Made by a program: the position numbers and the translations under genes. From a virus, in IMG/VR virus record IMGVR_UViG_3300014137_000003: a stretch of DNA of 64,000 nt. One strand, given 5' to 3'. The notes beneath the pieces were generated by a model, which was given only the letters and a program-made list of their open reading frames with translations, made no database searches and was not told the DNA's origin. Below, piece by piece: positions 1-64,000 of this stretch. Every line of letters starts with the position of its first letter. Positions within the stretch are counted from its first letter, which is position 1.

Positions 1-89
1 ACTTTCTTTAAGAAAGCAGAAGACTTAGAAATTTCACTCTAAGTGGTTTACTTGGTGCATACAGTTGTATGTACCTTTTGTTGTTGTTA

Positions 90-98
90 TGGTATAAT
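90..98 (+). promoter_or_regulatory. extended -10 promoter (TGGTATAAT)
   Basis: TGGTATAAT lies about 27 nt upstream of the ATG at 125. It belongs to the repeated TGGTAnAAT promoter family. Confidence 0.6.
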
Positions 99-124
99 AT
101 TTAAAAAGTATTAGGGGGTAGTCT

Positions 125-448
125 ATGGAAAAGATTAGTGGACGTCTTGCAGACGATAATAATTATACTCTTTCATTAGAGGACGGTCGTTTGAAGATGT
201 TAGTAGGTGTTGTTGAGTATGAGTTTAAGCTAGAAGATTTACTTGAATTCACTTGGGGTAACAATGCTTATGGTGAGTTTGCTATTCCTTTGAATATCCT
301 AAGTTCAGCGGTTAGGGGCAGGACTCTTTATCCAGCTTGTTTGAAAATTAGGGGATGGCTCTCTGATAAGACTTTGGAAGAGCTATTAAAATTTAAATTT
401 AAGAAAGAAAGACGTGGGGAAGATTATTTCCTCATTGGTAAATGGTGA
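125..448 (+). CDS. hypothetical protein
   Basis: 107-aa ORF. An AGGGGGTA SD-like box ends 5 nt before the ATG. Confidence 0.7.
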   Translation: MEKISGRLADDNNYTLSLEDGRLKMLVGVVEYEFKLEDLLEFTWGNNAYGEFAIPLNILSSAVRGRTLYPACLKIRGWLSDKTLEELLKFKFKKERRGEDYFLIGKW

Positions 449-993
449 TTTTTATGTATTTTAAAGTAACGAGTCATAGTGCGTTGAAGCGTTTGTATGA
501 TTATCTTGATGAGCGTTTCATTCCTAATATTGCTAGAGATAGTCTTTTATTGAACTTGTCTATGTCGGGAGATGCTATTACTTTCCCTTTGGTACTTAGC
601 CTTGGTGGTCTAAGCTTTAAGGTAGTAGAAGAGGGAAGCGTAGAAGAAGGCAGTCCTATCGTTGAGGTGCGTACCAAGGAAGTGTTTATCTCTTCGAATG
701 GGGTAACTCGCAAATTGCGTGACGGATTGGACATCTATCCTAAGTTTAAGCGTGCTGATTGGTACTCTGGAAAGGTTGCTTTCAAAATTGAAGACTTCGA
801 CACCTTGGAACAGTTTGTAGGCATCTTTGAACCAGGAGAAGTAAAAGATTTCCCAGAAACTTATAGCGGTAAAACTATTTACCTAACAGTTAAGGAGTCA
901 AATATCTCTTTTCATAAAGAGTTACCTCAAGGTATGCCATGTGTTACCTATCACTCAGGTTATACTTTCCCTAGTGCTTTAGAGGTGATGTAG
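442..993 (+). CDS. hypothetical protein
   Basis: 183-aa ORF whose start overlaps the upstream stop (ATGGTGA). An alternative ATG lies at 454. Confidence 0.65.
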   Translation: MVIFMYFKVTSHSALKRLYDYLDERFIPNIARDSLLLNLSMSGDAITFPLVLSLGGLSFKVVEEGSVEEGSPIVEVRTKEVFISSNGVTRKLRDGLDIYPKFKRADWYSGKVAFKIEDFDTLEQFVGIFEPGEVKDFPETYSGKTIYLTVKESNISFHKELPQGMPCVTYHSGYTFPSALEVM

Positions 994-994
994 T

Positions 995-1921
995 ATGGCT
1001 ACAAAGTTTGTAATTGATAAGGAATTATTTGACTTCTTAGAGTCAACTTATCACGAATGTGACCTCGGAATGGGTAATAATGGCATCGTCCATTTGTATA
1101 AAGTTCCAGGTGCTTCAATTACTATCTACAGGACTGGTACTCTTCTTATCCAAGGTAAGAAAGAAGAGAAGTATGCTCAACTTATTGGTGGGATGCTAAG
1201 TTCTAAGGCTATCCAGCCTAAATCGTCCAAGAAAGGGAAGGGTTCAAAGTCTTCGAAGGATAACCCTTTTAGTAATCAAGCTTTCATTATGGGTTCTGAC
1301 GAGGTTGGTAACAGCTCTTATACAGGGGGTATGACTGCAGCAGCGGTTTATGTTCCTAAGAAAGCCGTATCTCGTCTGCATGCTTTAGGGGTAGCGGACT
1401 CTAAGACCATCAGTGACGGTAGAGTGCTAAAACTTGCCGAAGAGGTTAAAAAGATTTGCCCTTATTTTGTTATGAGTTTATCTCCAAGGCAGTATAATAG
1501 GGCTATCGACAAGGGTTATAACCAAGTATCACTTAAAGTTTTTATGCATAATTACTGTGCATCTAAATTGCAAGAAGCTAATCCAGAACTTAAGTATCAA
1601 AATTATATTGTTGATGGGTTTACTCTTCAACCGTCATGGGATAAGTATGTTGCTAAGGAAAAGGAAAAATGTAGTGTTAAGGCTAGGTTGATTCCTCATG
1701 CTGAAGGTAAGTATTTGGCAGTAGCAGCAGCGTCTATCTTGGCTAGGGCAGCTTTTCTAGCTCAGATACAGTCTTTATCTACAGAGTCCGGTATTAACCT
1801 ACATCAGGGTGTTACTTCTCATGTTAGGGACGATGTACTAGCCATTAAATCACGTGGTTTTGATTTAAATGATTTTGTGAAACTACACTTTAAAAATACG
1901 AAAATGTGGGGGCTAAAATAA
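995..1921 (+). CDS. rnhC: ribonuclease HIII-like
   Basis: GSDEVG..YTGGMTAAAVYV, ADSK and HAEGKYLAVAAASILARAAFL match the RNase HII/HIII catalytic motifs. The N-terminal YRTGTLLIQGK region resembles the RNase HIII TBP-like domain, and the C-terminal KLHFKNT matches B. subtilis RnhC. Confidence 0.8.
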   Translation: MATKFVIDKELFDFLESTYHECDLGMGNNGIVHLYKVPGASITIYRTGTLLIQGKKEEKYAQLIGGMLSSKAIQPKSSKKGKGSKSSKDNPFSNQAFIMGSDEVGNSSYTGGMTAAAVYVPKKAVSRLHALGVADSKTISDGRVLKLAEEVKKICPYFVMSLSPRQYNRAIDKGYNQVSLKVFMHNYCASKLQEANPELKYQNYIVDGFTLQPSWDKYVAKEKEKCSVKARLIPHAEGKYLAVAAASILARAAFLAQIQSLSTESGINLHQGVTSHVRDDVLAIKSRGFDLNDFVKLHFKNTKMWGLK

Positions 1922-1924
1922 TTT

Positions 1925-2758: not shown

Positions 2759-2779
2759 ATTATTGAAAGGTTACAAGTT

Positions 2780-3145: not shown

Positions 3146-3152
3146 ATAAAAA

Positions 3153-3674: not shown

Positions 3675-3675
3675 A

Positions 3676-24448: not shown

Positions 24449-24830
24449 GGGGTCGTCTTGGATTCGACAGGCGACTGAGATTAAGAACTTCACTCCGAGT
24501 GGTGACGTAATCACCAAACTTAAATATAACTGCAAACACAGTTCAACCTGTTGAGATGGCAGCCTAACAAGTCTCCCTCGACTTGTATGTCTGTCTAATC
24601 AACACAAGTAAATTACCGATTAAGGTGAGCGACTATCTGTAAGTAACGGTGCAGTGGTAGCTATAAACCACGTTACTCGCTAGAAGGGGTATCTCAGCCC
24701 TCTAGTTAAATACGAGATATAGCTTTAGGGTTTGTGCATTTACCTAAGGTCGAATGTTTAAATGTAGCAGAGTGCTATAGAGTTTTTAGTTGAGGTTGTT
24801 TGGACGTGGGTTCGAAACCCACCGGCTCCA
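24449..24830 (+). ncRNA. ssrA: tmRNA (SsrA), tag ANTVQPVEMAA
   Basis: The 5' end GGGGTCGTCTTGGATTCGACAGG and 3' end GGACGTGGGTTCGAAACCCACCGGCTCCA form an alanine-type acceptor with G3:U70. The tag ORF (GCAAACACAGTTCAACCTGTTGAGATGGCAGCCTAA) spans 24532-24567. Confidence 0.9.
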
Positions 24831-30484: not shown

Positions 30485-30522
30485 TTTTTAGGTATATCAG
30501 TTAAATAAAAATGGAGGTATAT

Positions 30523-31695
30523 ATGTCAAAGGGTATGTCTAAAATTCTTGGGTTAGAGCTTAAGAATTTTATGTCTATCAAAGAAGCTAAGTTAGTCTTT
30601 GATGAGACAAATATTATTAACCTTAAGGGTTATAACGATAGTGGTAAGTCTGCTATCACACGGGCTTTAGATGTTTTGTTGTTTGATTCTTATAAGCGAG
30701 CTCAGAAAAACTTTATCACCCACGGAGAGCATTATTTCCGTATTAAGTTGCACTTCGATGATGGCGTAACTATTGTGCGTGACAAGTATTTGAATGGCTC
30801 TAGTTTATATGAAATGTATTCCGAGGGTAGTCTCATCTTTAGCACTAAGGTGGGAAACACTTTAACTCAAGTTAAAGATGTCCCTCTTGAAATTAAAGAA
30901 TACTTGGCTATGACGGAGACCTCACAAGGTAATTACCTTAATAGCCAGTCTATTTATGACAAACAGTTTCTTATTCAAACGTCAGGTTCTGAGAACGTAG
31001 AACTCTTGAATGGGGTACTGAAGCTAAAAGAAACTGGTCTAGCAACCACTGCTATTAAGAACGATATTAATCAGTTATCTTCTAGTATTAATGGTATTTT
31101 AGCAGATATTGAGGCTATCAAAACTTCTCTTGAACGTTATGAAGATTTAGACGAAGACTTTATTCTCTTACTTTCTGACTTAGATAGTAAGTATGATGAA
31201 GTTGAACGTAAATACAATCGTCTAGCAGAACTAGAGGATTTACTTGTAGACATCTCTGAGTTGCCGGAGGGTGTTCCTGAGTTGTCTATGATTGACGGTT
31301 CTCTCTATTCTTCCTTGTTAGGGGTAGCTGAATCTGTAGAGGAGTTAGCTAAAATCAAGGAAATTCCTAATGTAGACAAGATTGACTATAATTTTTACCT
31401 TGATTTACTTAAATTATGGGAGTTGCAAAATTCTTATAAAAACGTCGACACTCTAATTTTGGATATTCCACTAATTGATTTTGGTATATTAAATTCCTTG
31501 AAAATTCTAGGGAATAGCTTTGAAGAATTGGTAGAAATTTCAAACATTATTAGTTCCCTTAGTGGTAGGGCTGAAGAGCTAGAAAATGAAAGTTCTGAGA
31601 TTCAGGAGTATGCTCGTGAGAATGGAATTTCTATTAGTAAGTGTGACAATTGTGGTGCTTTAGTTCAGGGTGTTGCAGGTCATGTGCATTTGTAA
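30523..31695 (+). CDS. Rad50/SbcC-like ATPase, N-terminal half (Walker A plus coiled coil)
   Basis: LELKNFMSIKEAKLVF....LKGYNDSGKSAITRALDVLLF, then a long coiled coil ending in CDNCGALV. Confidence 0.7.
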   Translation: MSKGMSKILGLELKNFMSIKEAKLVFDETNIINLKGYNDSGKSAITRALDVLLFDSYKRAQKNFITHGEHYFRIKLHFDDGVTIVRDKYLNGSSLYEMYSEGSLIFSTKVGNTLTQVKDVPLEIKEYLAMTETSQGNYLNSQSIYDKQFLIQTSGSENVELLNGVLKLKETGLATTAIKNDINQLSSSINGILADIEAIKTSLERYEDLDEDFILLLSDLDSKYDEVERKYNRLAELEDLLVDISELPEGVPELSMIDGSLYSSLLGVAESVEELAKIKEIPNVDKIDYNFYLDLLKLWELQNSYKNVDTLILDIPLIDFGILNSLKILGNSFEELVEISNIISSLSGRAEELENESSEIQEYARENGISISKCDNCGALVQGVAGHVHL

Positions 31696-32085: not shown

Positions 32086-33120
32086 ATGTCAATATTTAGT
32101 CCAGAACAACACTACCGTATCGATGGTAAGGGTGGTGTTGGTATCTTTGGGGATACCCATTATTCGGCTATCTTCCAGGGAGCTCATAAGAACTATCAAG
32201 AAGAAAACCTTGACTCTATGGCTCGTATGATTGAAATCGTAAAAGAAGAGAAGTTTGATGCCGTAGTCTTGTTAGGGGACTTGATTGGGGTATCTGAACG
32301 GAACATTCGTGACTTACGTTTCCTTTTGGAGGTTACTGTATGGTTGCAGACTCTAAATAACCTAACTAATGGAAATGTATTTGTAGTTAGGGGTAACCAT
32401 GACATTGGAGACTTCCCTCAGTTTGAGTATTTCAAGGGTGTAGGGTTGATTAAGACCCCTACAGAAGTAGACCATTATGTAGATGATGTACTTATGGTTC
32501 GTTATCATTTTGTGGGGTATGGCGAGGAGAAACGTCCTCTTCGTTATGAGGGGGTAGAAGATGGTGTCCATCAAATTGTGTTTGGTCACAACGATTATTC
32601 TATCTCTGGGGTAACTAACTGGTACTATTCTAAGAATGGAGTCGAGATGTCAACTCTTGGTAACTTTGAGCATGTATCTTGGGTTATCAGTGGGCATATT
32701 CATCACCCTAGCCCAGATATCTATTCTCAAACAATTGGTAGCAATGAGGTATTCTTATTCTACCCAGGAGCGGTAAGTCGTGTAAGCTCTAGTGAACAAT
32801 ATAATGATTGTTTCTACTTCAAGCTTTTCTATAACGAGGACGAAGGTGGCTTTGACTATGAGATTAAAAACTTCGGTCTTAAGCCTGCTAGTGAAGTTTT
32901 TCTACAATCTAAGCTAGATGAAGAGAACCAAGAAGCCTTAGAAGAAGAGCTTGAGCGTAAGGAGTCTAACAAGCGTTTAACGGAAATTCTGAACGAGGCT
33001 ATGGGGTACAGGATTGTAACTGGGGATATGATGAAACAGATTGATAGTTTCCCTCACGCATCAGATGAGGCGAAGTCCTTAGCTAAGCAGTATTTACAAA
33101 ATGCAATAGATATGGTATAA
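32086..33120 (+). CDS. Mre11/SbcD-like nuclease
   Basis: Phosphoesterase motifs GIFGDTHYS, VVLLGDLIG, VVRGNHD and SGHIHH. Confidence 0.8.
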   Translation: MSIFSPEQHYRIDGKGGVGIFGDTHYSAIFQGAHKNYQEENLDSMARMIEIVKEEKFDAVVLLGDLIGVSERNIRDLRFLLEVTVWLQTLNNLTNGNVFVVRGNHDIGDFPQFEYFKGVGLIKTPTEVDHYVDDVLMVRYHFVGYGEEKRPLRYEGVEDGVHQIVFGHNDYSISGVTNWYYSKNGVEMSTLGNFEHVSWVISGHIHHPSPDIYSQTIGSNEVFLFYPGAVSRVSSSEQYNDCFYFKLFYNEDEGGFDYEIKNFGLKPASEVFLQSKLDEENQEALEEELERKESNKRLTEILNEAMGYRIVTGDMMKQIDSFPHASDEAKSLAKQYLQNAIDMV

Positions 33121-35933: not shown

Positions 35934-37466
35934 ATGTCTTATGTTTATGATAAAGTAGTTACTTCATTAGGTGGCAAACCCTTAGTAAGTAGTACCAAAG
36001 AAGGTATAACTGTAAAGGGTTGGTCGCCTAATATGTTTAAGAGGGTAGCCATCTTGACGGATGGTATTGTAGTAGAGTATCATGGTAGTGTCTCTCGTAG
36101 TCGTGTTATACCTTTTAATATAGAAGATGTTAGTAAGGATTTAGCCCAAGGAGCTAAGTATAAGAACCCACTTCGTCCTCTTTTTGAGTTCAAGGCTTTG
36201 TCTTGTTTGGAAGAGTTATTAGTTTCTAGCTCTTTAGTAACTGATAAGATGGTAAATAACTTTATTTCCACTATCTCTGATACGCACAGGCTTAGGCGAG
36301 TAGGGGTACTCCCTATGGAAGTTAAGACTTCCGACATTTCTTCTCTTATTGAAAAGTGTAATGCTCAGGAAGGTGGCAAACATTTACTTCTTTCTGATTT
36401 TATAAATGGTAGCACTAAGATTTCAACTCACAATGAAGACTACTACACAAAATACTATCTACGTCCTACATTGTATGAGTTAGATAAGCCAGGTGGTAGT
36501 TTACGGAAGTATTTTGATAATGTAAAAGCTGAAGTCCTTTCTAAAAGAACTGAAAGCAACAAAGTTTCTCTAGTAAATTCTTACATTGAATACGATAAAA
36601 AGAATATTCGCTTTTGGAATAGTGTTGTTGATTTCTTAAACAATAAAGAAAATCCTACAAAGTATCCTAAGCTTTATACAACTTTGAAGGCTCATTCTGT
36701 TGCAAATAGTGGTTGTTATCTTGAGGGGCTTAAGGACTACTTTAGCTCACGTGGTACTAGCGACCCAATCTATAAGGTCTATAAAATCTTGGGGTATCTA
36801 GACACTAAGGGTTCTAGTAAACCTAACTCTGAGGCTAAAGGTTTCTTAAGAAAGATGGAATCTGTTGCAAATAATTCTTACACTTCTGTCTTAGAAGTAA
36901 TTAAGAAAGACAGCAATGGTTTATTAGGCAATCTTAAGTTACCTAAAGACTCTAGTCGCACTTACATAGTGATGTCAGTACTTGAGATTTTGAATTCCGA
37001 AACTGTCGGTACTGACAACAAAAAGGTCAAATCAGAATTCCGAGACTCTGAAGTAGAAGATGATGCAACTAAAGTTGCTAACGAAGAGTTGAAAGCTAGT
37101 ATCAAGAATTCTTTACCCGAGAGCCTAATGGTAGGGTTGTTTGACTTATGGGAGTCTCTACAAGATAGTTATAAGGAAACAGCAGGTATGCTCTTAACGG
37201 CAAAAGAAAGAGATTTCGATAAGAGGTTCTCTGAAAAGTCTTTGAGTGAGTTAGGTTTGCAACGTCATGCTGAAACCCTATCTCTATTGGGGTATTGTGG
37301 GGGTAGTGATTCCCTAGAAGGCTTGGTTGACTTATCGTTTACCGATGCTTTAAGCAGTCTCTGTCATATGGTAACGAGGGGTAGCTTAGCTGAGTTGCGT
37401 GCTGAGCCTTGGAAGAATCTTTCAGACACTGACAAATGTAGTTATATTATTGGGAGGATTAACTAG
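35934..37466 (+). CDS. hypothetical protein
   Basis: 510-aa ORF with an AGGAGGGTA SD. Confidence 0.65.
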   Translation: MSYVYDKVVTSLGGKPLVSSTKEGITVKGWSPNMFKRVAILTDGIVVEYHGSVSRSRVIPFNIEDVSKDLAQGAKYKNPLRPLFEFKALSCLEELLVSSSLVTDKMVNNFISTISDTHRLRRVGVLPMEVKTSDISSLIEKCNAQEGGKHLLLSDFINGSTKISTHNEDYYTKYYLRPTLYELDKPGGSLRKYFDNVKAEVLSKRTESNKVSLVNSYIEYDKKNIRFWNSVVDFLNNKENPTKYPKLYTTLKAHSVANSGCYLEGLKDYFSSRGTSDPIYKVYKILGYLDTKGSSKPNSEAKGFLRKMESVANNSYTSVLEVIKKDSNGLLGNLKLPKDSSRTYIVMSVLEILNSETVGTDNKKVKSEFRDSEVEDDATKVANEELKASIKNSLPESLMVGLFDLWESLQDSYKETAGMLLTAKERDFDKRFSEKSLSELGLQRHAETLSLLGYCGGSDSLEGLVDLSFTDALSSLCHMVTRGSLAELRAEPWKNLSDTDKCSYIIGRIN

Positions 37467-40400
37467 TGGCATATATTAAAGAAGTCCTTAGTGGCATTAA
37501 ACAATTAAATTCGCCTAACGAGGTCAAATCTATCGTAGTAGGTAAGGATTTTGTTTATCTACGAAAACACAAAGACGATGACCCTCAACCCAGTTTATTT
37601 ATACCGTTTGACCCTAGTTTGGTAGGTAGTGACGACCCTTTATTCTTCATGGACGAGAGGACCTATGGTACTGCCGAGGAGCTCTTTGTTTATGAGGGGT
37701 ATTCGCATTCTCCGATTATTGAGAGCTATATGCATAAGGCTACTGAAGAAAGGGCACGTCTATCTACTTTAATTATTGGTAGTAAAGAAGAGATTGATAC
37801 TTGTGCTAGTGGGGTAGATGCAGGGGCTAGTATAGAGGACTTAGGTTATTCTTATGCTAGATCGATTGTAGATTTCTCTCATATCTATCCTTTACAGCCC
37901 GAGCATTACTCTTGGGATGCCGTTGAGGGTCTTGAGTACTTTAGGGGAGTAGAGGAGCTTGTCGCCAACACGTATGGTACTGCTGAGGGTGAAGATGATT
38001 CTAGGGGTACTGAGGAAGTATCCGACGAGGACTTGGACGGTGTTGGGGGTACTAAAGAGCTAGATTCGGAAGAAGTAGAAGAAAGTACCCCTACAGCTGA
38101 TGATTATACCATCCAAGATGCCGTTGAGTACTATGCACCGCATATTGATACGGTAGTTTCTGATATTGTTTCTAACTACACAAAACTATTTAAAGCGGGG
38201 TATCAACTTAAGAGACCTGTTGGTGTTCTTGGTGAGCAGGGTGACTCGGGTAAACTTATGACTTTGAGTGGTAGTTCACAGACCTTTACGAAACCTAACC
38301 CAGTTATTCGTGCTTTATATCAGCTTACGGTTGCTGAATATAATTTGACGATACTTCCTTATCGTTCGGTTGACCATATCGCATCTATCATCGTAAACGG
38401 GGTAACTCCTGATGGGGCAACTATTTCTCCAGATACTCGATTGTACTTCCCTTATAAGATGCTAGAGTTTGCTTACGGTAGGAAGACACCTAAAGCAACT
38501 GAGGGTGGTAAAACTAACTATCCTAAGCACTCTGAAAAGTTGAACTGGGACGCTTATGCTAGTGAGGTAGACGAGAACTTACGTCAGGTTACTAGGGGTA
38601 TCGTTGCTAAAATTTTAGGAAACTTTGAAGACGTAGATTATTTTGATGCTAAGGTTGAGTCTAGTATTACTGAATCCTTAACTCGCTTTAAGGATGTGTT
38701 TACTACTTGTATTCTTGTAGGCGAGTTTCCTCTTATCAAAGGTTTACCATCCTTGTTAAAAGTTAGAACTCTTTTACCTTTTGAATTACATAATAATCAT
38801 AACGTAGCAACCGAGGCTATGAGGGTAGGTATTTCTTCTTTGGGAACCGATCCGTTTGAGGGTATTCCTATTCATGATGGGGTATATCACATGTACACCC
38901 ATGAGTATAATCACTCTTTAGCTAACAGTAAGCCAATGTATGCCTATCATGCAGCTAAATCTCTTAAAGAGTCAGGACACGAAGTAAATTATAAGAATAT
39001 GATTATCGGTCTTGGCTTGGATGATTCTATCTTGCAGAATGGTAGTGGTAATGTTAACCTCGTACCTAATATGAGCCACTTCTTAGTAGCAGGCTCTAGG
39101 GCAGGTAAGGGTGTTGACAGTATGGCAAAACTAGCAGCAGCACTTAAGTCAGGTAAACCTGTCTTTTACTTAGATAATAAGCCCGATATTGGTGCAGTTC
39201 TGTTAGATATTGAACCTAATGCCTTTGTTGTAAATGGTCAGTTGGTTACATCATCTGTCGATGGTGGTACTAATATTGGTGGTCACTTTATGGGTAGCTC
39301 AGCATTAGCTAATGTTAACCCTCAAGGTGTTCCGTCTTACTTATACAATTCTAGTGATGCCCTATTTAGGGGTAGGTCTTACAGTCAGTTGGGGGCAGTG
39401 TTCTACGCAAGAGCTTTGCAGTTGATTATGCTTATTACTTACTTTAGGACTCTAGACGATATTTCAGCTAAGATAGACTTAGGTGATAAGTCTAATGGTA
39501 TCGTTGCTTTCTTCGATGAGTTTAACGTAACACAGGATTCAGGTCTTGGACCTTTAATGCAAAAGATTTACTTCAACTATGCTAGAACAGATTATGCTGA
39601 GGCTGAGCGTAACGCCCAAGAGACTGGTAAGAAAAACTCTGTAAGGAAACCTAGTCAAAATGCCTATTGGGGTACTGCCTTTACTGAGTCCTTAAAGAAT
39701 ACGGCTATGATGTTAGCTGATGGTACTAAAGCAGGTTACATGAACGGGGAAGCAGCAGCGTCTGATATTTTTATTGTAGGTCAGGACTTACCAGATGTTA
39801 TTGAGTCTGCAGAAGATTTCGATGACTTCTTCCCAACTCACCGTGGTAAGAACACAGAACGTGCACAGTTTGCTAGTGGTAAAGGTAGTGGTAAGACTCA
39901 ACCTCTCGTTCCTTTAGTATCACCAGGTGGAGCTGATATCTTTGTGGGGTATAACCTTAAGCACTCAAATTACTTGAATCAGTCTCGTGGTTTCGCAAAA
40001 GACAAACTAGACAAAGATGCTCGTTTATTTGCTTATATTCCTACTTATAATAGGGGTACTAAGAAACAAATTGAAAGTGGTAACGAAGAGTTCGCTAGAA
40101 ATGTTCCTACTTATTATAAACCTCTCTTACTTTTAGCTGATGCTGATATGGATAAGTATTTTGTTAAGAATGCTATGTCCTATGCTATTGAGTCGGGTAT
40201 TGACGCTGAGTCTATTATCTTAGACAATGCTCAAGAGGATGAACAAGGTAACCCAATAAAATTTGAAAAACGTCAGTTTAGCGATAATAAGGGGCATAAG
40301 TATACAACAGAATATAGAATTCACCCAGCAGTAGGTTTTAAAGATTATTTAAATTATATTGGTATGGATGATTCTAGTATCTCTAGTTCCTTAAAAGCAG

Positions 40401-41812
40401 CAAGTAATATGGCTCAGCGTGTTGTATCTGCTCTAGGTTATGAGGGTACTTGGAGGGACTTCGTACAGGATTTGCGTCCAGAGTATATGCTCCATGCAAA
40501 TAATGTATTAGAATCCCTTAGAACTGGTAAACGTTTATCGGATTTGAATGCTAAAACATTCTCGGAGTTTAGGGAGGGGTATCCAGAAGCCTTCACAGTT
40601 TCCGATATTTCTCGATTAGGAGAGGAGACTGGTGAGTCTGATGTATCCTATGAAGATATTGACTTTGCAAGTTTAGGTAAAGCAGTCTATGCTAATTCTG
40701 AAAATGCATCAGCGGATGAAGTAGAGGAAATCTTCAAACAAGATGGCTTATTGGATGACATTGACCTAGGTAATGAGCATGATATTTATGATAATGCTCA
40801 AAGTGTTCAGTTCTCTCAAGAGGATCGCCTTAAGGATTTAACCATTTCGGATATTCAAAACCTTACTCCTAACGAGCAAAAAGCTATCTATGATATGCTT
40901 ATTGAAGGTTTAAAGAACAAGCCCGATATTGAAAATCCTAATGACGAACAACTAGGTTATGGTAAGCTAGGGGTAGCCTATGATAACTATGGTAGAGCTT
41001 ACAAGATTGACACATCTCAAGTAGATAAGACTTCTTCGGTTTATGATGATGTTATTCTAGACGATAATATCTCTAAACTAGACGGAAGTGTACATGAGGT
41101 TTCTTATCAGGCTCTAGTTAAAACTATAACAGAAAAGGCAGTAGCAGTAGCCAAAACTGGTGGTGGTTTTAAGACTATATCTGTTCTTGGTGGTGCTTTA
41201 GTTATCAATGAGGTAATGATTGGTCTCAAAATCCCTGAGAACCTTTTAGGTGGCTTACCAAGTAATGTAGCTGATGACATTAGAAGTGGTAGACTAGCTA
41301 AGTACTTTAATTGGAGGCTATTGCGTAGAAGTGGAGTAGTTACTTTGAAGGTAGATTCCTCTAGGTTTGTCTTTACAGAAATCTCAGAGGGTATGGGGTA
41401 TTCTAAGAACTTTAATGTTCAACAGTTATTTGAAGACTTACCAAGACTTCAAAAGTTTGTAGTAGGAAGCGAAGAATACACTAGAGCACGTGTTAATTCT
41501 ATTGCAAGAAACCAGGAAGAAGACCCCTTCTACCAACCTCGTAGGGCAGAGCAAGCTTACAGACTCTCTCAAGCTTGGTTAGGTAGTAAGAGGTTGGCAT
41601 CTTGGCAACGTGCTAATGATGTTTGGAAACGTAAAGACTTGGGTACTTTCCGTAAAGTCTTAAGTACGGTAGGTAATACAACTCTTGCAGGTGCTAGTGG
41701 GGCTACGGAAGCTACTGGTTGGGCTGGACGCAAACTCTTTAGAAGCGTAGGTCGTGCAGCTAGTGAGTTTAAGTCTATGCTTGATGACTCCAAGAACTTA
41801 GGAAAGAAATAG
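37466..41812 (+). CDS. very large P-loop NTPase-containing protein
   Basis: 1448-aa ORF with central LVAGSRAGKGVDS (Walker A-like) and IVAFFDEFNV (Walker B-like). It may be FtsK/HerA/TraG-like, but this is unverified. Confidence 0.7.
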   Translation: MAYIKEVLSGIKQLNSPNEVKSIVVGKDFVYLRKHKDDDPQPSLFIPFDPSLVGSDDPLFFMDERTYGTAEELFVYEGYSHSPIIESYMHKATEERARLSTLIIGSKEEIDTCASGVDAGASIEDLGYSYARSIVDFSHIYPLQPEHYSWDAVEGLEYFRGVEELVANTYGTAEGEDDSRGTEEVSDEDLDGVGGTKELDSEEVEESTPTADDYTIQDAVEYYAPHIDTVVSDIVSNYTKLFKAGYQLKRPVGVLGEQGDSGKLMTLSGSSQTFTKPNPVIRALYQLTVAEYNLTILPYRSVDHIASIIVNGVTPDGATISPDTRLYFPYKMLEFAYGRKTPKATEGGKTNYPKHSEKLNWDAYASEVDENLRQVTRGIVAKILGNFEDVDYFDAKVESSITESLTRFKDVFTTCILVGEFPLIKGLPSLLKVRTLLPFELHNNHNVATEAMRVGISSLGTDPFEGIPIHDGVYHMYTHEYNHSLANSKPMYAYHAAKSLKESGHEVNYKNMIIGLGLDDSILQNGSGNVNLVPNMSHFLVAGSRAGKGVDSMAKLAAALKSGKPVFYLDNKPDIGAVLLDIEPNAFVVNGQLVTSSVDGGTNIGGHFMGSSALANVNPQGVPSYLYNSSDALFRGRSYSQLGAVFYARALQLIMLITYFRTLDDISAKIDLGDKSNGIVAFFDEFNVTQDSGLGPLMQKIYFNYARTDYAEAERNAQETGKKNSVRKPSQNAYWGTAFTESLKNTAMMLADGTKAGYMNGEAAASDIFIVGQDLPDVIESAEDFDDFFPTHRGKNTERAQFASGKGSGKTQPLVPLVSPGGADIFVGYNLKHSNYLNQSRGFAKDKLDKDARLFAYIPTYNRGTKKQIESGNEEFARNVPTYYKPLLLLADADMDKYFVKNAMSYAIESGIDAESIILDNAQEDEQGNPIKFEKRQFSDNKGHKYTTEYRIHPAVGFKDYLNYIGMDDSSISSSLKAASNMAQRVVSALGYEGTWRDFVQDLRPEYMLHANNVLESLRTGKRLSDLNAKTFSEFREGYPEAFTVSDISRLGEETGESDVSYEDIDFASLGKAVYANSENASADEVEEIFKQDGLLDDIDLGNEHDIYDNAQSVQFSQEDRLKDLTISDIQNLTPNEQKAIYDMLIEGLKNKPDIENPNDEQLGYGKLGVAYDNYGRAYKIDTSQVDKTSSVYDDVILDDNISKLDGSVHEVSYQALVKTITEKAVAVAKTGGGFKTISVLGGALVINEVMIGLKIPENLLGGLPSNVADDIRSGRLAKYFNWRLLRRSGVVTLKVDSSRFVFTEISEGMGYSKNFNVQQLFEDLPRLQKFVVGSEEYTRARVNSIARNQEEDPFYQPRRAEQAYRLSQAWLGSKRLASWQRANDVWKRKDLGTFRKVLSTVGNTTLAGASGATEATGWAGRKLFRSVGRAASEFKSMLDDSKNLGKK

Positions 41813-44963: not shown

Positions 44964-45587
44964 ATGGCAGAGTTTCGTAGATATAATTATTCTAAAAAGA
45001 GACCAGGAAGTGATAATCCTATTAACCCTGACTTAGTACCTTATTTATCTTGTGTGGATACTCCTTTTACCCTTATTGGGGTATCTGTAAGAAACATTCT
45101 TTCTAGCACAGAATATAGTGCTATGGTTAGAGATTGTAAAAAAAGGGCTAGAAACAACTGTGAACTTTGTGGTAGGTATGTAGCTCGTACCAAAGAGGAT
45201 TTTATCCATTCACAAGAGCTTTATGATAAAGACCTATCTAAAGGCATTTTCAAGTATAAAGGTTTAATTGGTTTATGTAAAGATTGCTTTTATATGTTTA
45301 ATCCATATATAATGAACTTGGACTTAGAAAACCTTGTTATTAAGCCTAAGTATGTGTATAGGTTACGGCAGACTAGGGAATCGATGCTTTCCTCTTTTGG
45401 TTTTAGGGGTGTAGATTTGCCTAGGAAGAAGGTGTTTGTCTTTGAATATAGGGGGTATCAATATATAAATGATTCTATACCCTCTATTTTAGATAGGGCT
45501 TTGGGGGCAGGTGTTAGGGTTCTCCCCATGCGAAAAGACTTTATGGCAATACACCCAGACTTATATTATCATAAGCCTTTATCTTAG
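44964..45587 (+). CDS. hypothetical Cys-pair protein (degenerate HNH/zinc-finger-like)
   Basis: CELCGRY...H....GLCKDCF. Confidence 0.55.
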   Translation: MAEFRRYNYSKKRPGSDNPINPDLVPYLSCVDTPFTLIGVSVRNILSSTEYSAMVRDCKKRARNNCELCGRYVARTKEDFIHSQELYDKDLSKGIFKYKGLIGLCKDCFYMFNPYIMNLDLENLVIKPKYVYRLRQTRESMLSSFGFRGVDLPRKKVFVFEYRGYQYINDSIPSILDRALGAGVRVLPMRKDFMAIHPDLYYHKPLS

Positions 45588-48750: not shown

Positions 48751-50889
48751 ATGGCAGATTTATTAAAAGACCTAGAAAACTTTACTTCGAATTTGGAAGA
48801 GGTAAAACCAAAGAAGGAAGTAGTTGGTACAGGTTATGTAAAGAAAAAGGACACTGCTAGTGAGCGGTTCCTAGAACGTGTCACGGAAAAGGGGTACGAC
48901 TTAACTGAGCTTGAAGGAGCCCTTAAGACTTGGGGCAACCAGTTGGTTCTATCTTGTGCAGGAAGTGGTAAAACTACTTTTACAGTAATGAAAATTTTGT
49001 ATGGAACTCGTACTGGTAAGTTAACTCAAAAGGTAGAAGTTAATGGAAATACTGTACGAACTATGGCACGGATTTGGGTTTCTACCTTTTTGAATAGTGG
49101 TGCTAGGGAGTTGGAGTACGAAGTAGCCAAGTGGAATAAGAAAATGGGGTATGTTGATACTTCTAAATCAATAAAGTTTTCCACTATCCATGCAGAGTTT
49201 AAGTCTGTATTGAATGCTTGTGGTATTAGCACTAGCTTTATCGATGCTAAGGCTAACACTACTGCTCTACGCAACATCGTAAAACGATTTGGAGTAAGAG
49301 CTAATGGTAAGTTCCTTAATTCTGAACAGTTGTCTGATTTAGAGGGTGCATTGACTTATACTCGTAATAAACTTGATGGTAAACGTTATACCCACCAAGT
49401 TTATACTGACCTAGGTCTTACCTCAATTGAGATTGATGCTATTCTAAATGATTGGTATAAGGCACGTAAGGCAGCTGGCAAAATGGACTTTGAGGACTTG
49501 CAAGATATCCTCTATAACAAGTTGTTTGTAGAGGAAGACCAGAACATTATTGATTGTGTTTCAGACCGTTATGACTTCTTGTTTATTGACGAATTCCAAG
49601 ATACTTCCCAAAAGCAGTATGCTATCTTAAAAGTTTATATGCAGTATGCTAAGCAAACGGTAGTTGTAGGTGATGACGACCAAACTATCTACTCTTGGAG
49701 GGGTAGTGACCATAAGATTATTACTGAGACATTTATTAATGACTTTAGTCCTAAAATCTCTAAGCTCTCTACTAACTATCGATGCCCAGCAAATATTGTA
49801 AACGCTATTGTTCCTAGTATTGAACGCAATACTGAACGTTTAGAGAAGTCTATTAAGGCAAGCAAAGAAGGTGGGGAGGTTCGTCTTGGGGTATTCCCAT
49901 CTTACAATGCTATGGTTAAGAAATTGAATGAATTGGTTTATCAAGATATTTCAGACCGTATGAATGTAGCTATTATCTGTCGTGAGAATAGTGATGGGTT
50001 GTTGCCAGCTATGATGCTAGATAGGGATGGAAGGTTCTCTTTTAGTATTAGTGGGGAGGGTATGTCCCTAAACTCTTACATGGTTCAGCAAGCTAAGAAT
50101 GTTGTACGTTTGGTTAGCGAGAAAGCTACAAATGGTGTTGCATCTGCTCTTAAACAACTAACTTACTCTACTTGGGAAGTTGATTCTCTTATGTCAGCAC
50201 TTAAGAATAGTGGGGAAAGTATTTGGAATGTTCCTATGGACGAAGTTTCTTATTCTTGTCCTAGTCTATCAGGTATTCTCTCTGAGTGGAGAAATGTTTA
50301 CAGGGGTGTAACAGAAGGTAAGATGTCTGAAATGGGTTTGTTGGAATATCTTCTTTCTTACTATCATAACTTTGTTTATGAGAAGGAAAACACTTACAAC
50401 ATGAGAATGCGTTCTATCCTATCTTCTTTTGTAGTGCTTGTTAGGTCTGATGGTTTTGAATCTGCGTCTGAGTTCCTTTATGAGCTGAACGAAATGAATT
50501 TACGTTTACAAAGCCGAGTGAAGCTGAATAACGTAGATATTCGGATTGTTACTGTACACGAATTTAAAGGTAAGGAAGTAGATTCGGGGTATCTTTGGAA
50601 TGACTCTGTTGATGTCTTTCCTCATAAAAAGGCTGAAACTCAAGAAGAGCTTGAAGAAGAAAGGCGTAACCACTATATTGGTTGTACACGTCCTAAGAAA
50701 CGTTTGACCCTTATGACTATCCAAGGTAAGGAGGGTATGTTTATCTCGGAGATGGACTTATCTAACGCAATCCGTGTAGATAGTGTTTCTGGTATTAAAG
50801 GTTCATTAAAAGGTAAAGAAGATAGCGAAGAAGCTAGGAATAGACGTAGGCTTTTGGGAGAGTCAGCGGGTGTAGGTTTTGAAGAATAA
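48751..50889 (+). CDS. UvrD/Rep/PcrA-type SF1 helicase
   Basis: Helicase motifs CAGSGKT (I), FIDEFQDTS (II), VGDDDQTIYSWRG (III), TNYRC (IV), VHEFKGKE (V) and IGCTRPKKRL (VI). Confidence 0.9.
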   Translation: MADLLKDLENFTSNLEEVKPKKEVVGTGYVKKKDTASERFLERVTEKGYDLTELEGALKTWGNQLVLSCAGSGKTTFTVMKILYGTRTGKLTQKVEVNGNTVRTMARIWVSTFLNSGARELEYEVAKWNKKMGYVDTSKSIKFSTIHAEFKSVLNACGISTSFIDAKANTTALRNIVKRFGVRANGKFLNSEQLSDLEGALTYTRNKLDGKRYTHQVYTDLGLTSIEIDAILNDWYKARKAAGKMDFEDLQDILYNKLFVEEDQNIIDCVSDRYDFLFIDEFQDTSQKQYAILKVYMQYAKQTVVVGDDDQTIYSWRGSDHKIITETFINDFSPKISKLSTNYRCPANIVNAIVPSIERNTERLEKSIKASKEGGEVRLGVFPSYNAMVKKLNELVYQDISDRMNVAIICRENSDGLLPAMMLDRDGRFSFSISGEGMSLNSYMVQQAKNVVRLVSEKATNGVASALKQLTYSTWEVDSLMSALKNSGESIWNVPMDEVSYSCPSLSGILSEWRNVYRGVTEGKMSEMGLLEYLLSYYHNFVYEKENTYNMRMRSILSSFVVLVRSDGFESASEFLYELNEMNLRLQSRVKLNNVDIRIVTVHEFKGKEVDSGYLWNDSVDVFPHKKAETQEELEEERRNHYIGCTRPKKRLTLMTIQGKEGMFISEMDLSNAIRVDSVSGIKGSLKGKEDSEEARNRRRLLGESAGVGFEE

Positions 50890-51935: not shown

Positions 51936-52184
51936 TTGAAGGAGAAAGACTTTATAAAATCTTTAAAGGAAGTATGTGATGCATTCGAGCATTCTAAATC
52001 TCTATTAAATTCTTTATTAGATAATTTTGATGAAATGCAACTTGAGATGCAGTATTCTCTCCCTTACTCCGAAGATGAGTATGGTATAGTTATTTCAGAA
52101 TATGCTACTTATTCGGTAGATTGCCCTCATAAATTAAAGGAAATTGTTTCTGCCATGAAGGTAGATGGTTTATTGGAGGATTAG
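51936..52184 (+). CDS. hypothetical protein
   Basis: TTG start after an AGGGGTA SD. Confidence 0.5.
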   Translation: MKEKDFIKSLKEVCDAFEHSKSLLNSLLDNFDEMQLEMQYSLPYSEDEYGIVISEYATYSVDCPHKLKEIVSAMKVDGLLED

Positions 52185-52185
52185 T

Positions 52186-53721
52186 ATGTCTTATTTAGAG
52201 AAGCCCCTTAAAGGAATAGACTTTTTTATAGATACTGTTCAAGATTTGAAAAGTATGAAGAAAGAAGATAGACCCCCTGTCTTGGTATATGGAGACCCTG
52301 ACATTGATGGTCTTGTTTCTATGCGTGAATTCTTACTTTTCCTGGAGAAGGAGTTAGAAGATGAGTCAATTCCTTACTATGTAAATAATAATCGCTCTCA
52401 TGGGTTCTTTATCCCTCCCGAGAAGCTTAAGGGGTACTATGTTTTCTGTGTAGATTTCTCTATCGAACAGGATAAGATGGATGAACTTGTAGCTAATGGG
52501 GTTAATATTGTTTCTGTTGATCACCATGAGTGTCAAGAGTCCTTTATTTCTTCTTATGAATATGAAGAAGAGGAAATTAAAGGGGTTATCACAGACTCCG
52601 ACGGTGCTTTTGGTTTTGTTATAAACAACCAGTATCCTTTTGAAGACCCCGAATGGACCTTTCAGTCAGGTATGGGTGTTCTTTATCATTGTATTGGTGA
52701 GTATTATAGACAGGTGTATGACAGTACAGAGTACCTAGACAACAAGACTACACGTGCTTTGGTTGGTCTTACGTTGTTATCCGATGTTCGAAATATTGAA
52801 ATGCCAGAAGCTAGGCAATTCCTTGATGCCTTGTACACTCATCCAAATGAAGGGTATATCGGTTATTTAATTGAGTCCGTTCTTAGTAAGGATTATACCT
52901 TTGGTTTACCTTGCATGGATAGGAACTTTGTAGATTACACTTTCTCGCCCAAGGTAAACTCTCTGTTTAGGTTTAATCGAAAGGACTTGGCTTGTGCGTT
53001 TATCTTGGGGTATGGATATCCTTTAGAAGACTACCAGACACTTCAAAGGGAGTTTGTAGAGTATTTGGAGGGTAATATAACTAAGAAAGAGTACCCAAAT
53101 ATTACTTTTATCGAGATACCATCAACTGGTTTATCCGAAGAGGAGAAGTCTTATGTAACTAATTTTGTAGGTTTATTAGCTAGTAGGTATGTTAGTTCTA
53201 GTAATGTAGTTATTGCCTACTATTCAGATGATGGTGTTTATGGAAGGGCTTCCTTTAGGGGTAGCATCCAAAGTATCGATTTCCGAAGAGAGCTTAATAA
53301 ACTAGGTCTTGACGGAAGAGGTCACGCTAGTGCTTATGGTATTTTAAACTTTCAGCCTAGTGAACAACTCTTTGAGTCTTTAAGTAAAAGGTGTACAGAG
53401 TTGTTTGCGGATGTAAAAGAGGGGGTAATCTTTAGGGATGTACCTCACTTGTCTCTATGGATAAAAACTCCATCTAAGGGGTATAGAACCTCAAAAGAGA
53501 ATTGCTACTTATTAAATCATCATCGTATTTATTTGCATTATACTGGTGATTTTTCACGTATTGAGAAGAAACGTGGAAATGATAGATACTCAATTTACTC
53601 TGTTGATGGTATTGAGGTTAAGTGTTTCAACAATGAGTTAACTTTTGAGAACGGTCTTATTTTGCCCATGCTAGAAAAGGGTAGACCTGTTCTGCAACTA
53701 GCTCGGTTTATCGATGAGTAG
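52186..53721 (+). CDS. DHH-family phosphoesterase (RecJ-like)
   Basis: VLVYGDPDIDGL (DHH motifs I and II) and SVDHHE (motif III). The start is moved to the ATG after GGAGGA. Confidence 0.75.
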   Translation: MSYLEKPLKGIDFFIDTVQDLKSMKKEDRPPVLVYGDPDIDGLVSMREFLLFLEKELEDESIPYYVNNNRSHGFFIPPEKLKGYYVFCVDFSIEQDKMDELVANGVNIVSVDHHECQESFISSYEYEEEEIKGVITDSDGAFGFVINNQYPFEDPEWTFQSGMGVLYHCIGEYYRQVYDSTEYLDNKTTRALVGLTLLSDVRNIEMPEARQFLDALYTHPNEGYIGYLIESVLSKDYTFGLPCMDRNFVDYTFSPKVNSLFRFNRKDLACAFILGYGYPLEDYQTLQREFVEYLEGNITKKEYPNITFIEIPSTGLSEEEKSYVTNFVGLLASRYVSSSNVVIAYYSDDGVYGRASFRGSIQSIDFRRELNKLGLDGRGHASAYGILNFQPSEQLFESLSKRCTELFADVKEGVIFRDVPHLSLWIKTPSKGYRTSKENCYLLNHHRIYLHYTGDFSRIEKKRGNDRYSIYSVDGIEVKCFNNELTFENGLILPMLEKGRPVLQLARFIDE

Positions 53722-61875: not shown

Positions 61876-62169
61876 ATGAGAAAACGAAAAAGACCTAGAA
61901 ACAATATAGATTCAGTGGGTGTCGACATAGAGACTTTCGCCAATACTTATGTAGTAACTAGACCTAACGGTAAAGTTCGGGACTATCCTCAAAGTAGGGC
62001 TGTTACAGTTACACCAGGGTCTAAGCATGGTCGATACTATACCAATGGAAACGTGACTGCAACCTCTCTAGAAACTGACCTTAATCAGGTTATAATCCCA
62101 AGAAGCACGGCTTTCTCAAAGATAAAAAGAGTTGTAGCTTGGCTAGGAGGAGAACATCACCCTAGATGA
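61876..62169 (+). CDS. hypothetical basic protein
   Basis: 97-aa ORF with N-terminus MRKRKRPRN. Confidence 0.5.
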   Translation: MRKRKRPRNNIDSVGVDIETFANTYVVTRPNGKVRDYPQSRAVTVTPGSKHGRYYTNGNVTATSLETDLNQVIIPRSTAFSKIKRVVAWLGGEHHPR

Positions 62170-62282
62170 AGAGGTTGAATTTGACCTAGGTAACGGCATT
62201 GATTTAGTGAAGTAGGTATATTTATTTTGATTCTTGTTAGAGTAGTTTCTTCATGAGCCTTGCTTTCGACCTTTGCATTCGG

Positions 62283-62288
62283 TATAAT
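62283..62288 (+). promoter_or_regulatory. -10 box (TATAAT)
   Basis: CGGTATAATAATTATAGT upstream of 62315. Confidence 0.5.
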
Positions 62289-62314
62289 AATTATAGTCTC
62301 TTTTAGGGGGTTTT

Positions 62315-62644
62315 ATGTATAGTGCTTTAAATGAGAAGCATCTAAATTACTTAAGGAGTAAGGAGGGTGCTTATTATGAAACATGCCTTGCTCTAGCAAC
62401 TAAGTTAGCTAAAAGCAGGGAAATTAAGGTAGTTGACCTCTATGGAGTTCAGCTATCGATTAGGGGTATAAATGATGATATCGTTATCTTGTATAATACT
62501 AGCAGAAATTCTGTAAAGATTTATAAGTATGTAGGTGGATCTTACAAACTAGTCGAAGAAGGAATTAAGCTTAGCTTCAACTTAGGGGTATCTACCTTGA
62601 GTGAGGAGTTATTAAAATTAGACAGGGTTTGGGAAGTTAAATAA
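62315..62644 (+). CDS. hypothetical protein
   Basis: 109-aa ORF with an AGGGGGTT SD. Confidence 0.55.
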   Translation: MYSALNEKHLNYLRSKEGAYYETCLALATKLAKSREIKVVDLYGVQLSIRGINDDIVILYNTSRNSVKIYKYVGGSYKLVEEGIKLSFNLGVSTLSEELLKLDRVWEVK

Positions 62645-62663
62645 TGGAAGGAGCAATAAGTAT

Positions 62664-63552
62664 ATGTCATACTTAAACACTCCAGCAGATGAAGTTTCGA
62701 AAGAAGAAATCTTCGCCAATGAAGATAACTATCATCGCTGGAATTATTTATCGATTGAACCAGTTTCTACTGGTTACGAAGAGGATTTACCAGAAATCCA
62801 CAAATACACTAAAGAGATGTATGACTCTTTAGGGGATGGTACTGGTCGCAAGACAAAAGAACAGCAAGAGATGATTGAGAAGGTAAGGGCGATTTACCGT
62901 AAGAAAAATATCTTACCTATCAATTATTACTCGCTCTTAGGGGTGCAGCAAGAAATTCATAGATGTATTGGTTACGAGGCAACCTTTGACGGTGATACCG
63001 TTAATACAGGTGCAGGGGTTGGTACAGGACTTTGTAATTTCTTCTTCCCTAATCTGTATGATACGGCAAGTATTCAAGATGAGGATAAGAAGAAAGATGG
63101 TGCTGACACTCTTTACGGTAAGTTTATGAATGACAAGTACCTTGACAGGGCTATTCAGTTCTGCTTTGGGTATAAGGACGGGGATGCAGTTCCATCCTAC
63201 GTTATGGGTGGTCTTCGATTAGTAGGTTCGGCACCTAGTAATTTCCGTCCTATGAATGCACAGGCTATTTATGAGCGGTTCTGCCCAGAGAATGGGGTAA
63301 TCTTTGATACCTCTAGTGGCTTTGGTGGTCGCTTGGTAGGTGCGTTGACGTCTAAGAAGAATTTCACTTATGTAGGAACTGACCCTAACATGGAGTCTAT
63401 GTACAACACGCATCGAATAGCAGAAGCTATTGAGGGTGTTACTGGAAGAACTGGCTCTTACGAGTTGCATTGTTGTGGTTCTGAGCTTGATGACCTTATG
63501 GAAAAAGAGTCATGGGCTGATTTCCATTTCAGTTCGCCACCTTATTTTGAGT
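62664..63552 (+). CDS. DNA methyltransferase (N6-A or N4-C type), exon 1
   Basis: Motif I VIFDTSSGFGGRLVG, then YVGTDPN, then motif IV FSSPPYF, which is followed at once by a stop. The remaining catalytic and target-recognition regions are missing. Confidence 0.7.
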
Positions 63553-64000
63553 AATTGAGCTCCGTATCTCTGGTGACAGGGGTATGTCCTTACAAGCGTT
63601 AAACACTAGGAAGTCCTTAAAGCCCTACTGCTAAAACAGAGTTGGAAACGACAAATGGTAAAGTAGCGAAAGCGGAAAGAAGAGTAGGGATACCAATAAG
63701 CTGAAATAAAAGCTATAACTATTCTTGGTTATGGTGCTAAGTTGGTGTAAATAGGGTATTTAGTTACGAACCTCTAAGGCAAATTAGCTATGAGGCACGT
63801 TCATCGACTAGGTTCTTGGAAGGAACCGACCGGAAGGTCTTAATGTAGCCTAGCAAGTGCAGGCGAAAAATGCTTGGGCTTTGTTTATAAGCAAAGTTTA
63901 ACACATAGTCACGTCTTACATCGTAAGGGTGTAAGCTACTGAAATAGTAGGGTTAGGGGTAACGTCCTAGCAAAGATCGTTAGAAAATTATGGCGAACAT
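63553..64000 (+). mobile_element. putative group I intron (5' part, continues beyond the window)
   Basis: A P1-like pairing joins exon GAGU (63549-52) to GCUC (63559-62) with a U:G at the splice site. The intron starts with AATTGAG, as I recall for the T4 td intron. GNRA hairpins occur at 63666-73 and 63828-39. More than 440 nt follow with no ORF. Confidence 0.55.

Follow-up and report, generated by a model that had tools for sequence, protein, structure and literature searches.

Skewed oligomers such as Chi and KOPS (FtsK-orienting polar sequences) are the main known sequence cue from which enzymes take their direction on DNA and, to our knowledge, the well-studied systems of this kind are all defined by the cell. 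KOPS and SRS (SpoIIIE recognition sequences) are read by FtsK and SpoIIIE; the KOPS of Lactococcus lactis is GAAGAAG, and GCAGATG, GAAGCAG and GTAGAAG are candidates in streptococci (PMC3384302). In the phages LLS, MD8 and P1, Chi is the commonest octamer, and all 32 of the 32 copies in MD8 are located on a single strand (PMC12315714). Two other types of short site on phage DNA are of relevance, i.e., the 5'-GGGTC-3' sites where T7 gp4 starts the primer pppACCC, and the nick sites of T5-, tf- and phiKMV-type phages, which have an asymmetric consensus on one phage strand. Here, we describe the hexamer GGGGTA, often extended to GGGGTAT, in a stretch of 64,000 nucleotides (the window; IMG/VR virus record IMGVR_UViG_3300014137_000003), to which all counts and coordinates refer unless another source is named. 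We propose, tentatively and as no more than a fairly plausible reading, that GGGGTA(T) acts on DNA as a polar signal of the Chi/KOPS type, read by a translocating enzyme that is probably encoded by the phage itself.

The + strand has 166 copies of GGGGTA and the - strand has 4. Copies on the + strand follow each other at a mean distance of 387 nt (median 324 nt), with a density of about 2.6 per kb that is equal for coding and non-coding DNA. An earlier note, made by a model from the letters alone, had estimated a spacing of 250-300 nt, which is too short, and a chance expectation of about 1 copy per 10 kb, which is too low, as the zero-order expectation is 16 copies on the + strand or 2.5 per 10 kb. 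Its counts by eye came close for positions 1-9720 (about 33 versus exactly 31) and were near but too high for 30000-40000 (about 40 versus 33). The hyper-abundance and strand specificity that it reported are confirmed, with an excess of about tenfold, and the k-mer controls on both strands that it had called for do not reproduce this excess. Shuffles that preserve dinucleotides give 24.7±4.9 copies with a maximum of 42 (200 shuffles), while Markov models of order 2 and 3 predict 37 and 63 copies on the + strand, respectively. Within genes, 133 copies are observed versus 17.8±4.4 by codon permutation (z=26) and 33.2±5.4 by a synonymous-codon shuffle that preserves the proteins (z=18.6). The complement TACCCC, described before as nearly absent, is indeed rare on the + strand with four copies (4504, 15631, 38086 and 57587), yet about four are expected; its rarity thus reflects composition and no second signal, and the whole signal is the excess on one strand.

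The window has a GC content of 37.5% and a constant GC skew of about +0.2. Since GGGG runs are commoner on such a G-rich + strand, the excess might have been a functionless by-product of composition, codon usage or context-dependent mutation bias. This explanation is effectively refuted by the z-scores of 19-26 against codon-level shuffles and by the depletion of the remaining GGGGNN words. In addition, the motif is kept at zero GC skew, both in a related phage (L197) and at positions 4.5-12 kb of a longer contig of the same phage type (see below), and synonymous sites within motifs show more conservation instead of less.

The consensus of the 166 copies is W-GGGGTA-T-Y. The base at -1 is A in 69 copies, T in 58, G in 33 and C in 6, with C also avoided at -2; T follows at +1 in 51% of the copies and C or T is found at +2. 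Among the extended forms, GGGGTAT occurs 84 times, GGGGTATC 35 times and GGGGTATCT 25 times, in line with the earlier description of GGGGTAT as the commonest form, usually preceded by A or T. The word itself is sharply delimited. Against the 166 copies of GGGGTA there are 17 of GGGGTT, 9 of GGGGTG, 3 of GGGGTC, 5 of GGGGAA and 4 of GGGGGA, and variants with one mismatch are at most about twofold enriched. Such a sharp requirement fits base-by-base recognition by a protein.

Selection acts at the nucleotide level and not on the protein, as was supposed before. Coding copies are spread over all three codon phases (47/38/48), next to 33 non-coding copies, and the choice of codons depends on the context: GGG makes up 20% of the glycine codons overall, 46% before GT and 64% before TA, while GTA accounts for 82% of the valine codons after GGG versus 42% overall. 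The dipeptides GV, GY, GI and GT are enriched about 1.3-fold. The z-score of about 19 in the synonymous shuffle and the better conservation of synonymous sites within motifs, seen in each of the four relatives compared, lead to the same conclusion.

The copies are also distributed more evenly than by random placement (coefficient of variation of the spacing 0.77 versus 0.99±0.08, P=0.0002). Their positions within genes are uniform (Kolmogorov-Smirnov p=0.78) and the number of copies per gene is under-dispersed (chi2/df 0.76), as expected of a signal that is needed all along the DNA and not of gene-specific regulation. None of the genes is significantly depleted of the motif, as genes expecting more than two copies never reach a Poisson P<0.06. 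The genes with host-like codon usage that had been thought nearly to lack the motif do contain no copy (28563-29651) or one copy (8003-8965), but this depletion is not significant. With regard to RNA genes, the transfer-messenger RNA (tmRNA) gene has a single copy and one lies in a doubtful tRNA-Leu call, whereas the remaining eight tRNAs have none; the reported presence in tmRNA, tRNA-like RNAs and spacers thus applies to the tmRNA and the non-coding DNA, but hardly to the tRNAs.

The window is 97-99% identical to parts of two IMG/VR viral contigs. The longer one (IMGVR_UViG_3300008274_000007, 180.8 kb) is circularly permuted and was covered at 1-15 kb and 68-181 kb; in the 109 kb of its sequence that were read, which include the stretch without GC skew mentioned above, GGGGTA is found 279 times on the + strand and 7 times on the - strand. 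Among GenBank phages there is neither a relative at the DNA level nor a tblastn relative of the 1448-aa P-loop protein of the window (Table 1), and its UvrD-like helicase has distant matches only (<31% identity). With the 1448-aa protein as a marker, about 90 syntenic loci were collected from human gut and oral metagenomes, on contigs of up to about 260 kb, many of them 120-260 kb. In closer relatives (99-42% identity of the marker) GGGGTA is the top hexamer. AGGGTA and GGGTAT take this place in distant clades (25-30% identity), one of which has GGGTATG at 242:0 between the strands. The relative L197, with a GC content of 53% and a GC skew of about 0, has GGGTAT at 45:1 and AGGGTATT at 21:0. 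The family thus shares a core R-GGGTA-Y (GGGTAY) with lineage-specific flanks (variants are G-GGGTA-TC, W-GGGTA-TGG and A-GGGTA-TT), always on the gene strand, that is present in clades down to 25-29% marker identity and at 29-53% GC. A core that is kept over this range, including a relative with zero skew, is not a by-product of G-richness.

Individual copies are conserved as well. In the relative L003, with an 86% identical marker, 64% of the orthologous motif copies are conserved versus 28% of background hexamers, and in the more distant L004-L006 these values are 30-33% versus 9-11%. At four-fold degenerate sites, conservation within motifs and elsewhere is 0.78/0.63, 0.62/0.55, 0.64/0.53 and 0.68/0.52 in four relatives. 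The test of conservation in related phages that the earlier note had suggested thus places motif copies above background in four of four relatives, indicating purifying selection on single copies with turnover that maintains the density. High-GC clades (54-63% GC) have kept the marker gene, but the GGGTAY motif is missing. Other 8-mers are strand-specific there, i.e., ATAGAGGT (32:1) and TTAACCCT (29:0) in the pooled high-GC relatives L174-L222, and TTGGTCAT (21:1) in a 55% GC clade; these counts come from pooled related genomes and are not independent. These words could be promoters or another signal in place of GGGTAY.

A motif that is held dense and even on one strand would ensure that an enzyme moving in one direction meets a copy every few hundred bases, always in the same orientation. 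Similar to Chi, this encounter may inactivate or divert a helicase-nuclease engaged in the resection of DNA ends; alternatively, and similar to KOPS, it may orient a translocase of double-stranded DNA. Putative readers are the FtsK-like 1448-aa ATPase or a set of Mre11/Rad50-like, UvrD-like and RecJ-like proteins. The 1448-aa protein has no transmembrane segments and no sequence match in Pfam, PHROGs or the PDB. For the predicted structure of residues 401-1000 (pLDDT, a model confidence score, of 77) the best folds are those of the FtsK motor, the coupling protein TcpA, EccC, HerA and VirB4, with FtsK motor structures (2iut, 6t8o and 6t8b) and TcpA as top Foldseek matches in the PDB (probability 1.0, E-value of about 1e-4, TM-score 0.3-0.47), and the protein is therefore a probable FtsK/HerA-superfamily ATPase. 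Its C-terminal part is poorly modeled (pLDDT 54), with no meaningful fold matches and no sign of a gamma-like recognition domain. The earlier proposal of this protein as a candidate reader is thus strengthened by the predicted motor fold, but weakened by the lack of a detectable recognition domain and by the presence of the gene in motif-negative relatives. In all motif-positive clades the marker gene has the SbcC/Mre11-like pair in its vicinity, along with the UvrD-like helicase gene and four conserved genes of unknown function; in motif-negative clades its neighborhood lacks them. This co-distribution is weak evidence for a role in reading, as these genes could lie elsewhere in the motif-negative genomes.

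Both groups of described systems share essential features with GGGGTA. In the Chi-enriched phages (LLS, P1, and Pseudomonas phage MD8 with its relatives; PMC12315714), an asymmetric oligomer is likewise the top word, found (almost) exclusively on a single strand, and within open reading frames (ORFs) it is under selection as DNA. Yet, GGGGTA is unrelated to known Chi sequences and is spread evenly instead of being clustered at one end; moreover, the phage family studied here combines a core that is conserved over a wide GC range with end-processing genes of its own, and no excess of the motif was seen in samples of the putative host genus. KOPS and SRS are also G-rich, strongly skewed oligomers on the leading or gene strand, and an ATPase whose predicted fold resembles the FtsK motor is encoded in the phage genome. 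Here, in contrast, no gamma winged-helix domain was detected in the poorly modeled C-terminal part, the streptococcal KOPS candidates are different words, and motif and putative translocase do not co-occur, as 18 high-GC loci have the ATPase gene without the motif. A point of convergence comparable to dif was not seen either, with a single orientation over positions 1-15 kb and 68-181 kb of the longer contig.

A reading enzyme of the host offers a different account, in which the motif is the Chi of the host AddAB/RexAB nuclease and has been accumulated by the phage to escape or exploit it. The phages LLS, MD8 and P1 provide a direct precedent with RecBCD Chi (PMC12315714). Chi cores are kept across a bacterial class while the flanks change (E. 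coli, Haemophilus, Pseudomonas), which resembles the behavior of GGGTAY, and searches of the window revealed no inhibitor resembling Gam. The closest cellular homologues of two host-like genes are streptococcal (55% identity of the DUF1002 protein to Streptococcus suis and 37% of RNase HIII to Streptococcus massiliensis) and these two proteins weakly suggest a Streptococcus host. In 42 kb of Streptococcus chromosome from two loci, however, there are 7 copies on the gene strand versus 3.9 expected and 1 versus 2.2 on the other strand; the S. suis part, with 5:0 in 21 kb, would agree with a host Chi. The Streptococcus phages SMP and 2972 have no motif excess; the chromosome and phage samples are all small. 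Known Chi words of Firmicutes and KOPS/SRS words are unrelated to GGGGTA and not enriched in the window, where AGCGG occurs 14 times versus 13.5 expected and GAAGCGG, GCGCGTG (the Chi of L. lactis) and GCTGGTGG do not occur at all. The same core in phages of 29-53% GC would imply hosts of several genera, and the phage has its own end-processing genes. The Streptococcus samples without a phage-like excess, the known words at or below expectation and the wide GC range of the core together favor a phage-encoded or universal reader. With a weak host assignment and small samples, a host Chi is no more than quite improbable, and we consider a phage-encoded reader more likely than a host-encoded one.

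Several observations nevertheless weigh against a polar DNA signal read by a phage enzyme. GGGGTA is unlike any known Chi, KOPS or SRS sequence and, with 1 copy per 390 nt, its density is three to five times that of Chi-rich phages and far above that of bacterial KOPS. The host is a guess from the two homologues, such that the Chi of another genus would also be compatible with the data, and the S. suis counts are too few to interpret. The FtsK-like gene is present in the 18 high-GC loci that lack the motif, where a different motif is possible, and the match of its predicted fold has a low TM-score, with no gamma-like recognition domain found. Lastly, when all genes point in one direction, a signal at the RNA level predicts an identical pattern.

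This last point concerns the whole family. All 81 of the 81 gene calls in the window, which are simple ORF calls, are located on the + strand, as are the tmRNA and nine tRNAs predicted by ARAGORN, eight of them confirmed by Rfam. No strand switch with real minus-strand genes was found at 1-15 kb and 68-181 kb of the longer contig or in the about 90 related loci; long antisense ORFs are few, and these either overlap + strand genes or fall into repetitive or G-rich sequence. With all genes on one strand, reading at the DNA and at the RNA level cannot be separated computationally. A transcript-level signal would consist of GGGGUA(U) in each mRNA that binds an RNA-binding protein, guides or blocks an RNase, or binds ribosomes. 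Its strand specificity would match the coding strand everywhere, as is observed, and the conservation of the core across hosts could reflect a universal RNA machine. Ribosomes can probably use the motif, as 11 copies are located at Shine-Dalgarno distance (4-13 nt upstream) of a start codon, about fivefold the prediction from the genome-wide density. The motif can thus probably serve as the Shine-Dalgarno box of 11 of the 81 called starts, which bears out part of the earlier claim that it does so upstream of many starts, but only 11 of the 166 copies are explained in this manner and most remaining starts carry GGAGG-like boxes. Pairing with the anti-Shine-Dalgarno sequence cannot account for the excess, since GGGGTG, its better complement, is not enriched (9 versus 166 copies) and the canonical words are depleted within genes (GGAGG z=-3.1, AGGAGG z=-4.1). 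The same two results contradict the idea of deliberate internal Shine-Dalgarno-like pause sites. Moreover, the AGGGTA of distant clades pairs poorly with the anti-Shine-Dalgarno sequence, the motif shows no gradient along genes, and its density in the tRNA/tmRNA spacer region equals that in coding DNA. We know of no RNA-binding factor that is specific for GGGUAY. We infer that the motif is read on DNA, with a transcript-level signal as a serious, though unlikely, rival. AGGGUAUCU presumably has its exact complement in the universal 790-loop segment of 16S rRNA, AGAUACCCU, which is the site of the primers 785F/806R; this complementarity fails for the clade with GGGTATGG flanks and the flanks vary between clades, and we take it to be a probable coincidence.

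On DNA, the motif may also be read by a primase instead of a translocating enzyme, with copies acting as start sites on the lagging-strand template. A DnaG-type enzyme would read 5'-GTA-3', with the 3' A being cryptic, start with ATP opposite the T and continue along the G run to yield pppACCC(C). This resembles T7 gp4, which has a GGGT core, a cryptic 3' base and the same primer, and here the phage has a DnaG-type primase of its own: a Toprim protein matching the DnaG catalytic core (5vaz, E-value 7e-7), with EGxxD and DxD motifs, is encoded upstream of the window at a distance of about 3 kb. TA forms the end of the invariant core GGGTA, with GGGGTA far exceeding GGGGTT, GGGGTG and GGGGTC, and the even spacing is in agreement with priming. 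GGGTA is found once per 250 nt, similar to the three T7 site types taken together (161 per 40 kb), although it would occur by chance alone every 700-900 nt or so. The motif is on the G-rich strand, which would serve as lagging-strand template should replication and transcription share a direction. In T7, however, the sites GGGTC, TGGTC and GTGTC are at most about twofold enriched and occur on both strands, such that hyper-enrichment is neither needed nor known for priming. In addition, the ORF of the phage primase has no Cys4 or Cys/His cluster and no zinc-binding domain, through which DnaG and T7 gp4 read their template, although this domain could be on another protein. Near this stand-alone primase core there is also an unannotated 844-aa ORF. 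Taken together, primase start sites are an unlikely explanation of the motif, if a serious one.

The motif could further be a strand-specific site of nicking, as in T5- and tf-type phages, or of motif-directed base modification. It is asymmetric and on a single strand, the window encodes an HNH-like protein, the only candidate for a nicking enzyme found in it, as well as a glycosyltransferase, and one relative (L007) has QueE/QueC-like genes. In this phage only, a radical-SAM (QueE-like) and a PP-loop (QueC-like) gene at L007:18357-20254 hint at the synthesis of 7-deazaguanine; modification genes are not common to the family. Nick sites in T5-, tf- and phiKMV-type phages number from a handful to tens and are not reported to be over-represented in ORFs, whereas there are hundreds of motif copies here. 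The 279 copies in about 110 kb extrapolate to some 460 sites in the 181-kb genome, by far exceeding any nicked phage known to us. Being a target would also not explain positive selection for more copies. Nicking or modification is consequently very improbable.

Table 1. Positions of motif copies and genes referred to in the text; positions are those of the window unless a contig is named.
Feature	Position	Strand	Details
GGGGTA copy at Shine-Dalgarno position	115..120	+	4 nt before ATG at 125
Other GGGGTA copies at Shine-Dalgarno position	8976, 11516, 11995, 16456, 18943, 20133, 26219, 33946, 51924, 55387	+	
GtfA-like glycosyltransferase	3914-5554	+	
Paralogous small early-region pair	10857-11522 / 11535-12005		similar 'YKYxAYKxLNKL' proteins
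Two DUF3310 proteins	17790-18296, 23427-23894		paralogous small early-region genes
tmRNA	24449-24833	+	tag ANTVQPVEMAA
GGGGTA copy inside the tmRNA gene	24686..24691	+	sole copy in this gene
SbcC/Rad50-like ATPase (AAA_23)	30511..31695	+	
Mre11/SbcD-like metallophosphoesterase	32086..33120	+	
1448-aa P-loop protein	37466..41812	+	Walker A AGSRAGKGV 542-550, Walker B DE 684-685
DnaJ-domain (J-domain) protein	41889-42131	+	
SmpB	44525-44959	+	
207-aa Cys-rich protein	44964..45587	+	weak HNH-endonuclease match (phrog_5200, E 9.5e-6) at 1648-1727 of a concatenated query; ORF assigned from the order of the pieces
HU-like protein	45663-45941	+	
UvrD/PcrA-like superfamily 1 helicase	48751..50889	+	
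RecJ-like DHH single-strand exonuclease	52165..53721	+	
Actin-like protein	54221-55393		MreB-like C-terminal domain
Long coiled-coil protein	55397-57100		follows the actin-like gene
Unannotated 844-aa ORF	L011/L012:1924-4458		
Toprim protein, 262 aa, DnaG-type primase core	L011/L012:7138-7926		about 3 kb upstream of the window

The recognizable genes of the window also include those for RNase HIII, a DUF1002 protein and an ATP-cone protein, and its metallophosphoesterases number two. Most of the remaining genes have no annotation, and the conserved neighbors of the 1448-aa gene have no match in Pfam, PHROGs or PDB sequences. The phage carries a complete trans-translation pair of tmRNA and SmpB, as well as eight to nine tRNAs. 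The actin-like gene and the following gene for a long coiled-coil protein are both kept in high-GC relatives, and their predicted products could be a cytoskeletal or segregation pair of the phage. Small paralogous genes are found in the early region, i.e., the two DUF3310 genes and a second pair with a shared sequence pattern (Table 1).

Some further observations were made among the collected loci. A 236-kb contig labeled as a Mogibacterium metagenome-assembled genome (L017/L165; BNJT01.../CAKAFX010000005.1) belongs to the phage family, with GGGGTA at 33:0 and the marker gene, which suggests mis-binning; its short ORFs suggest assembly frameshifts, which are a more likely cause than stop-codon recoding as no reassignment restores the ORFs. 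A pattern scan of viral contigs for GGGGTATN{1,31}GGGGTAT yielded chance matches and tandem-repeat genes only. Three stretches in relatives (L010:6000-8500, L185:19000-19433 and L215:16682-17068) are poor in ORFs and have an extreme GC skew of 0.55-0.78, the first one with additional one-strand words (GTGTTG 38:0, GTTGTG 32:1). On L013 (contig of 163-167 kb), genes for an FHA-domain protein, a PP2C phosphatase and a 660-aa Ser/Thr-kinase-like protein are found in a row at 12516-15916, followed by those for a 1002-aa Ig-like/esterase-like protein and a zincin-like metallopeptidase (MPTase-PolyVal). L228-L230 (up to 342 kb, 25% GC) represent an apparently huge phage-like element in which both strands encode genes and GGGTA is not in excess; among its genes are a DUF1002 gene and IS605 OrfB/TnpB-like genes.

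Returning to the polar DNA signal, its most far-reaching version is a self-polarity code of the lineage, in which a motor or helicase-nuclease encoded by the phage would read GGGTAY such that phage DNA, but not host DNA, is spared, oriented or directionally processed. This would be a virus-encoded analogue of Chi or KOPS whose evolution is tied to the phage instead of the host, an idea that we consider conceivable but rather doubtful. Irrespective of its reader, GGGGTA is a signal several times denser than Chi in Chi-rich phages that shapes codon choice and dipeptide content and is inherited within a deep family of uncultivated phages. Were it the Chi of the host, it would define Chi for a bacterial group in which none is known, and were it to act in priming, we would know of no earlier example of primase sites that shape a whole genome. 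If the reader is encoded by the phage, the motif would represent a new viral system for self-marking or genome polarity and, at the same time, a handle to find this family in metagenomes.

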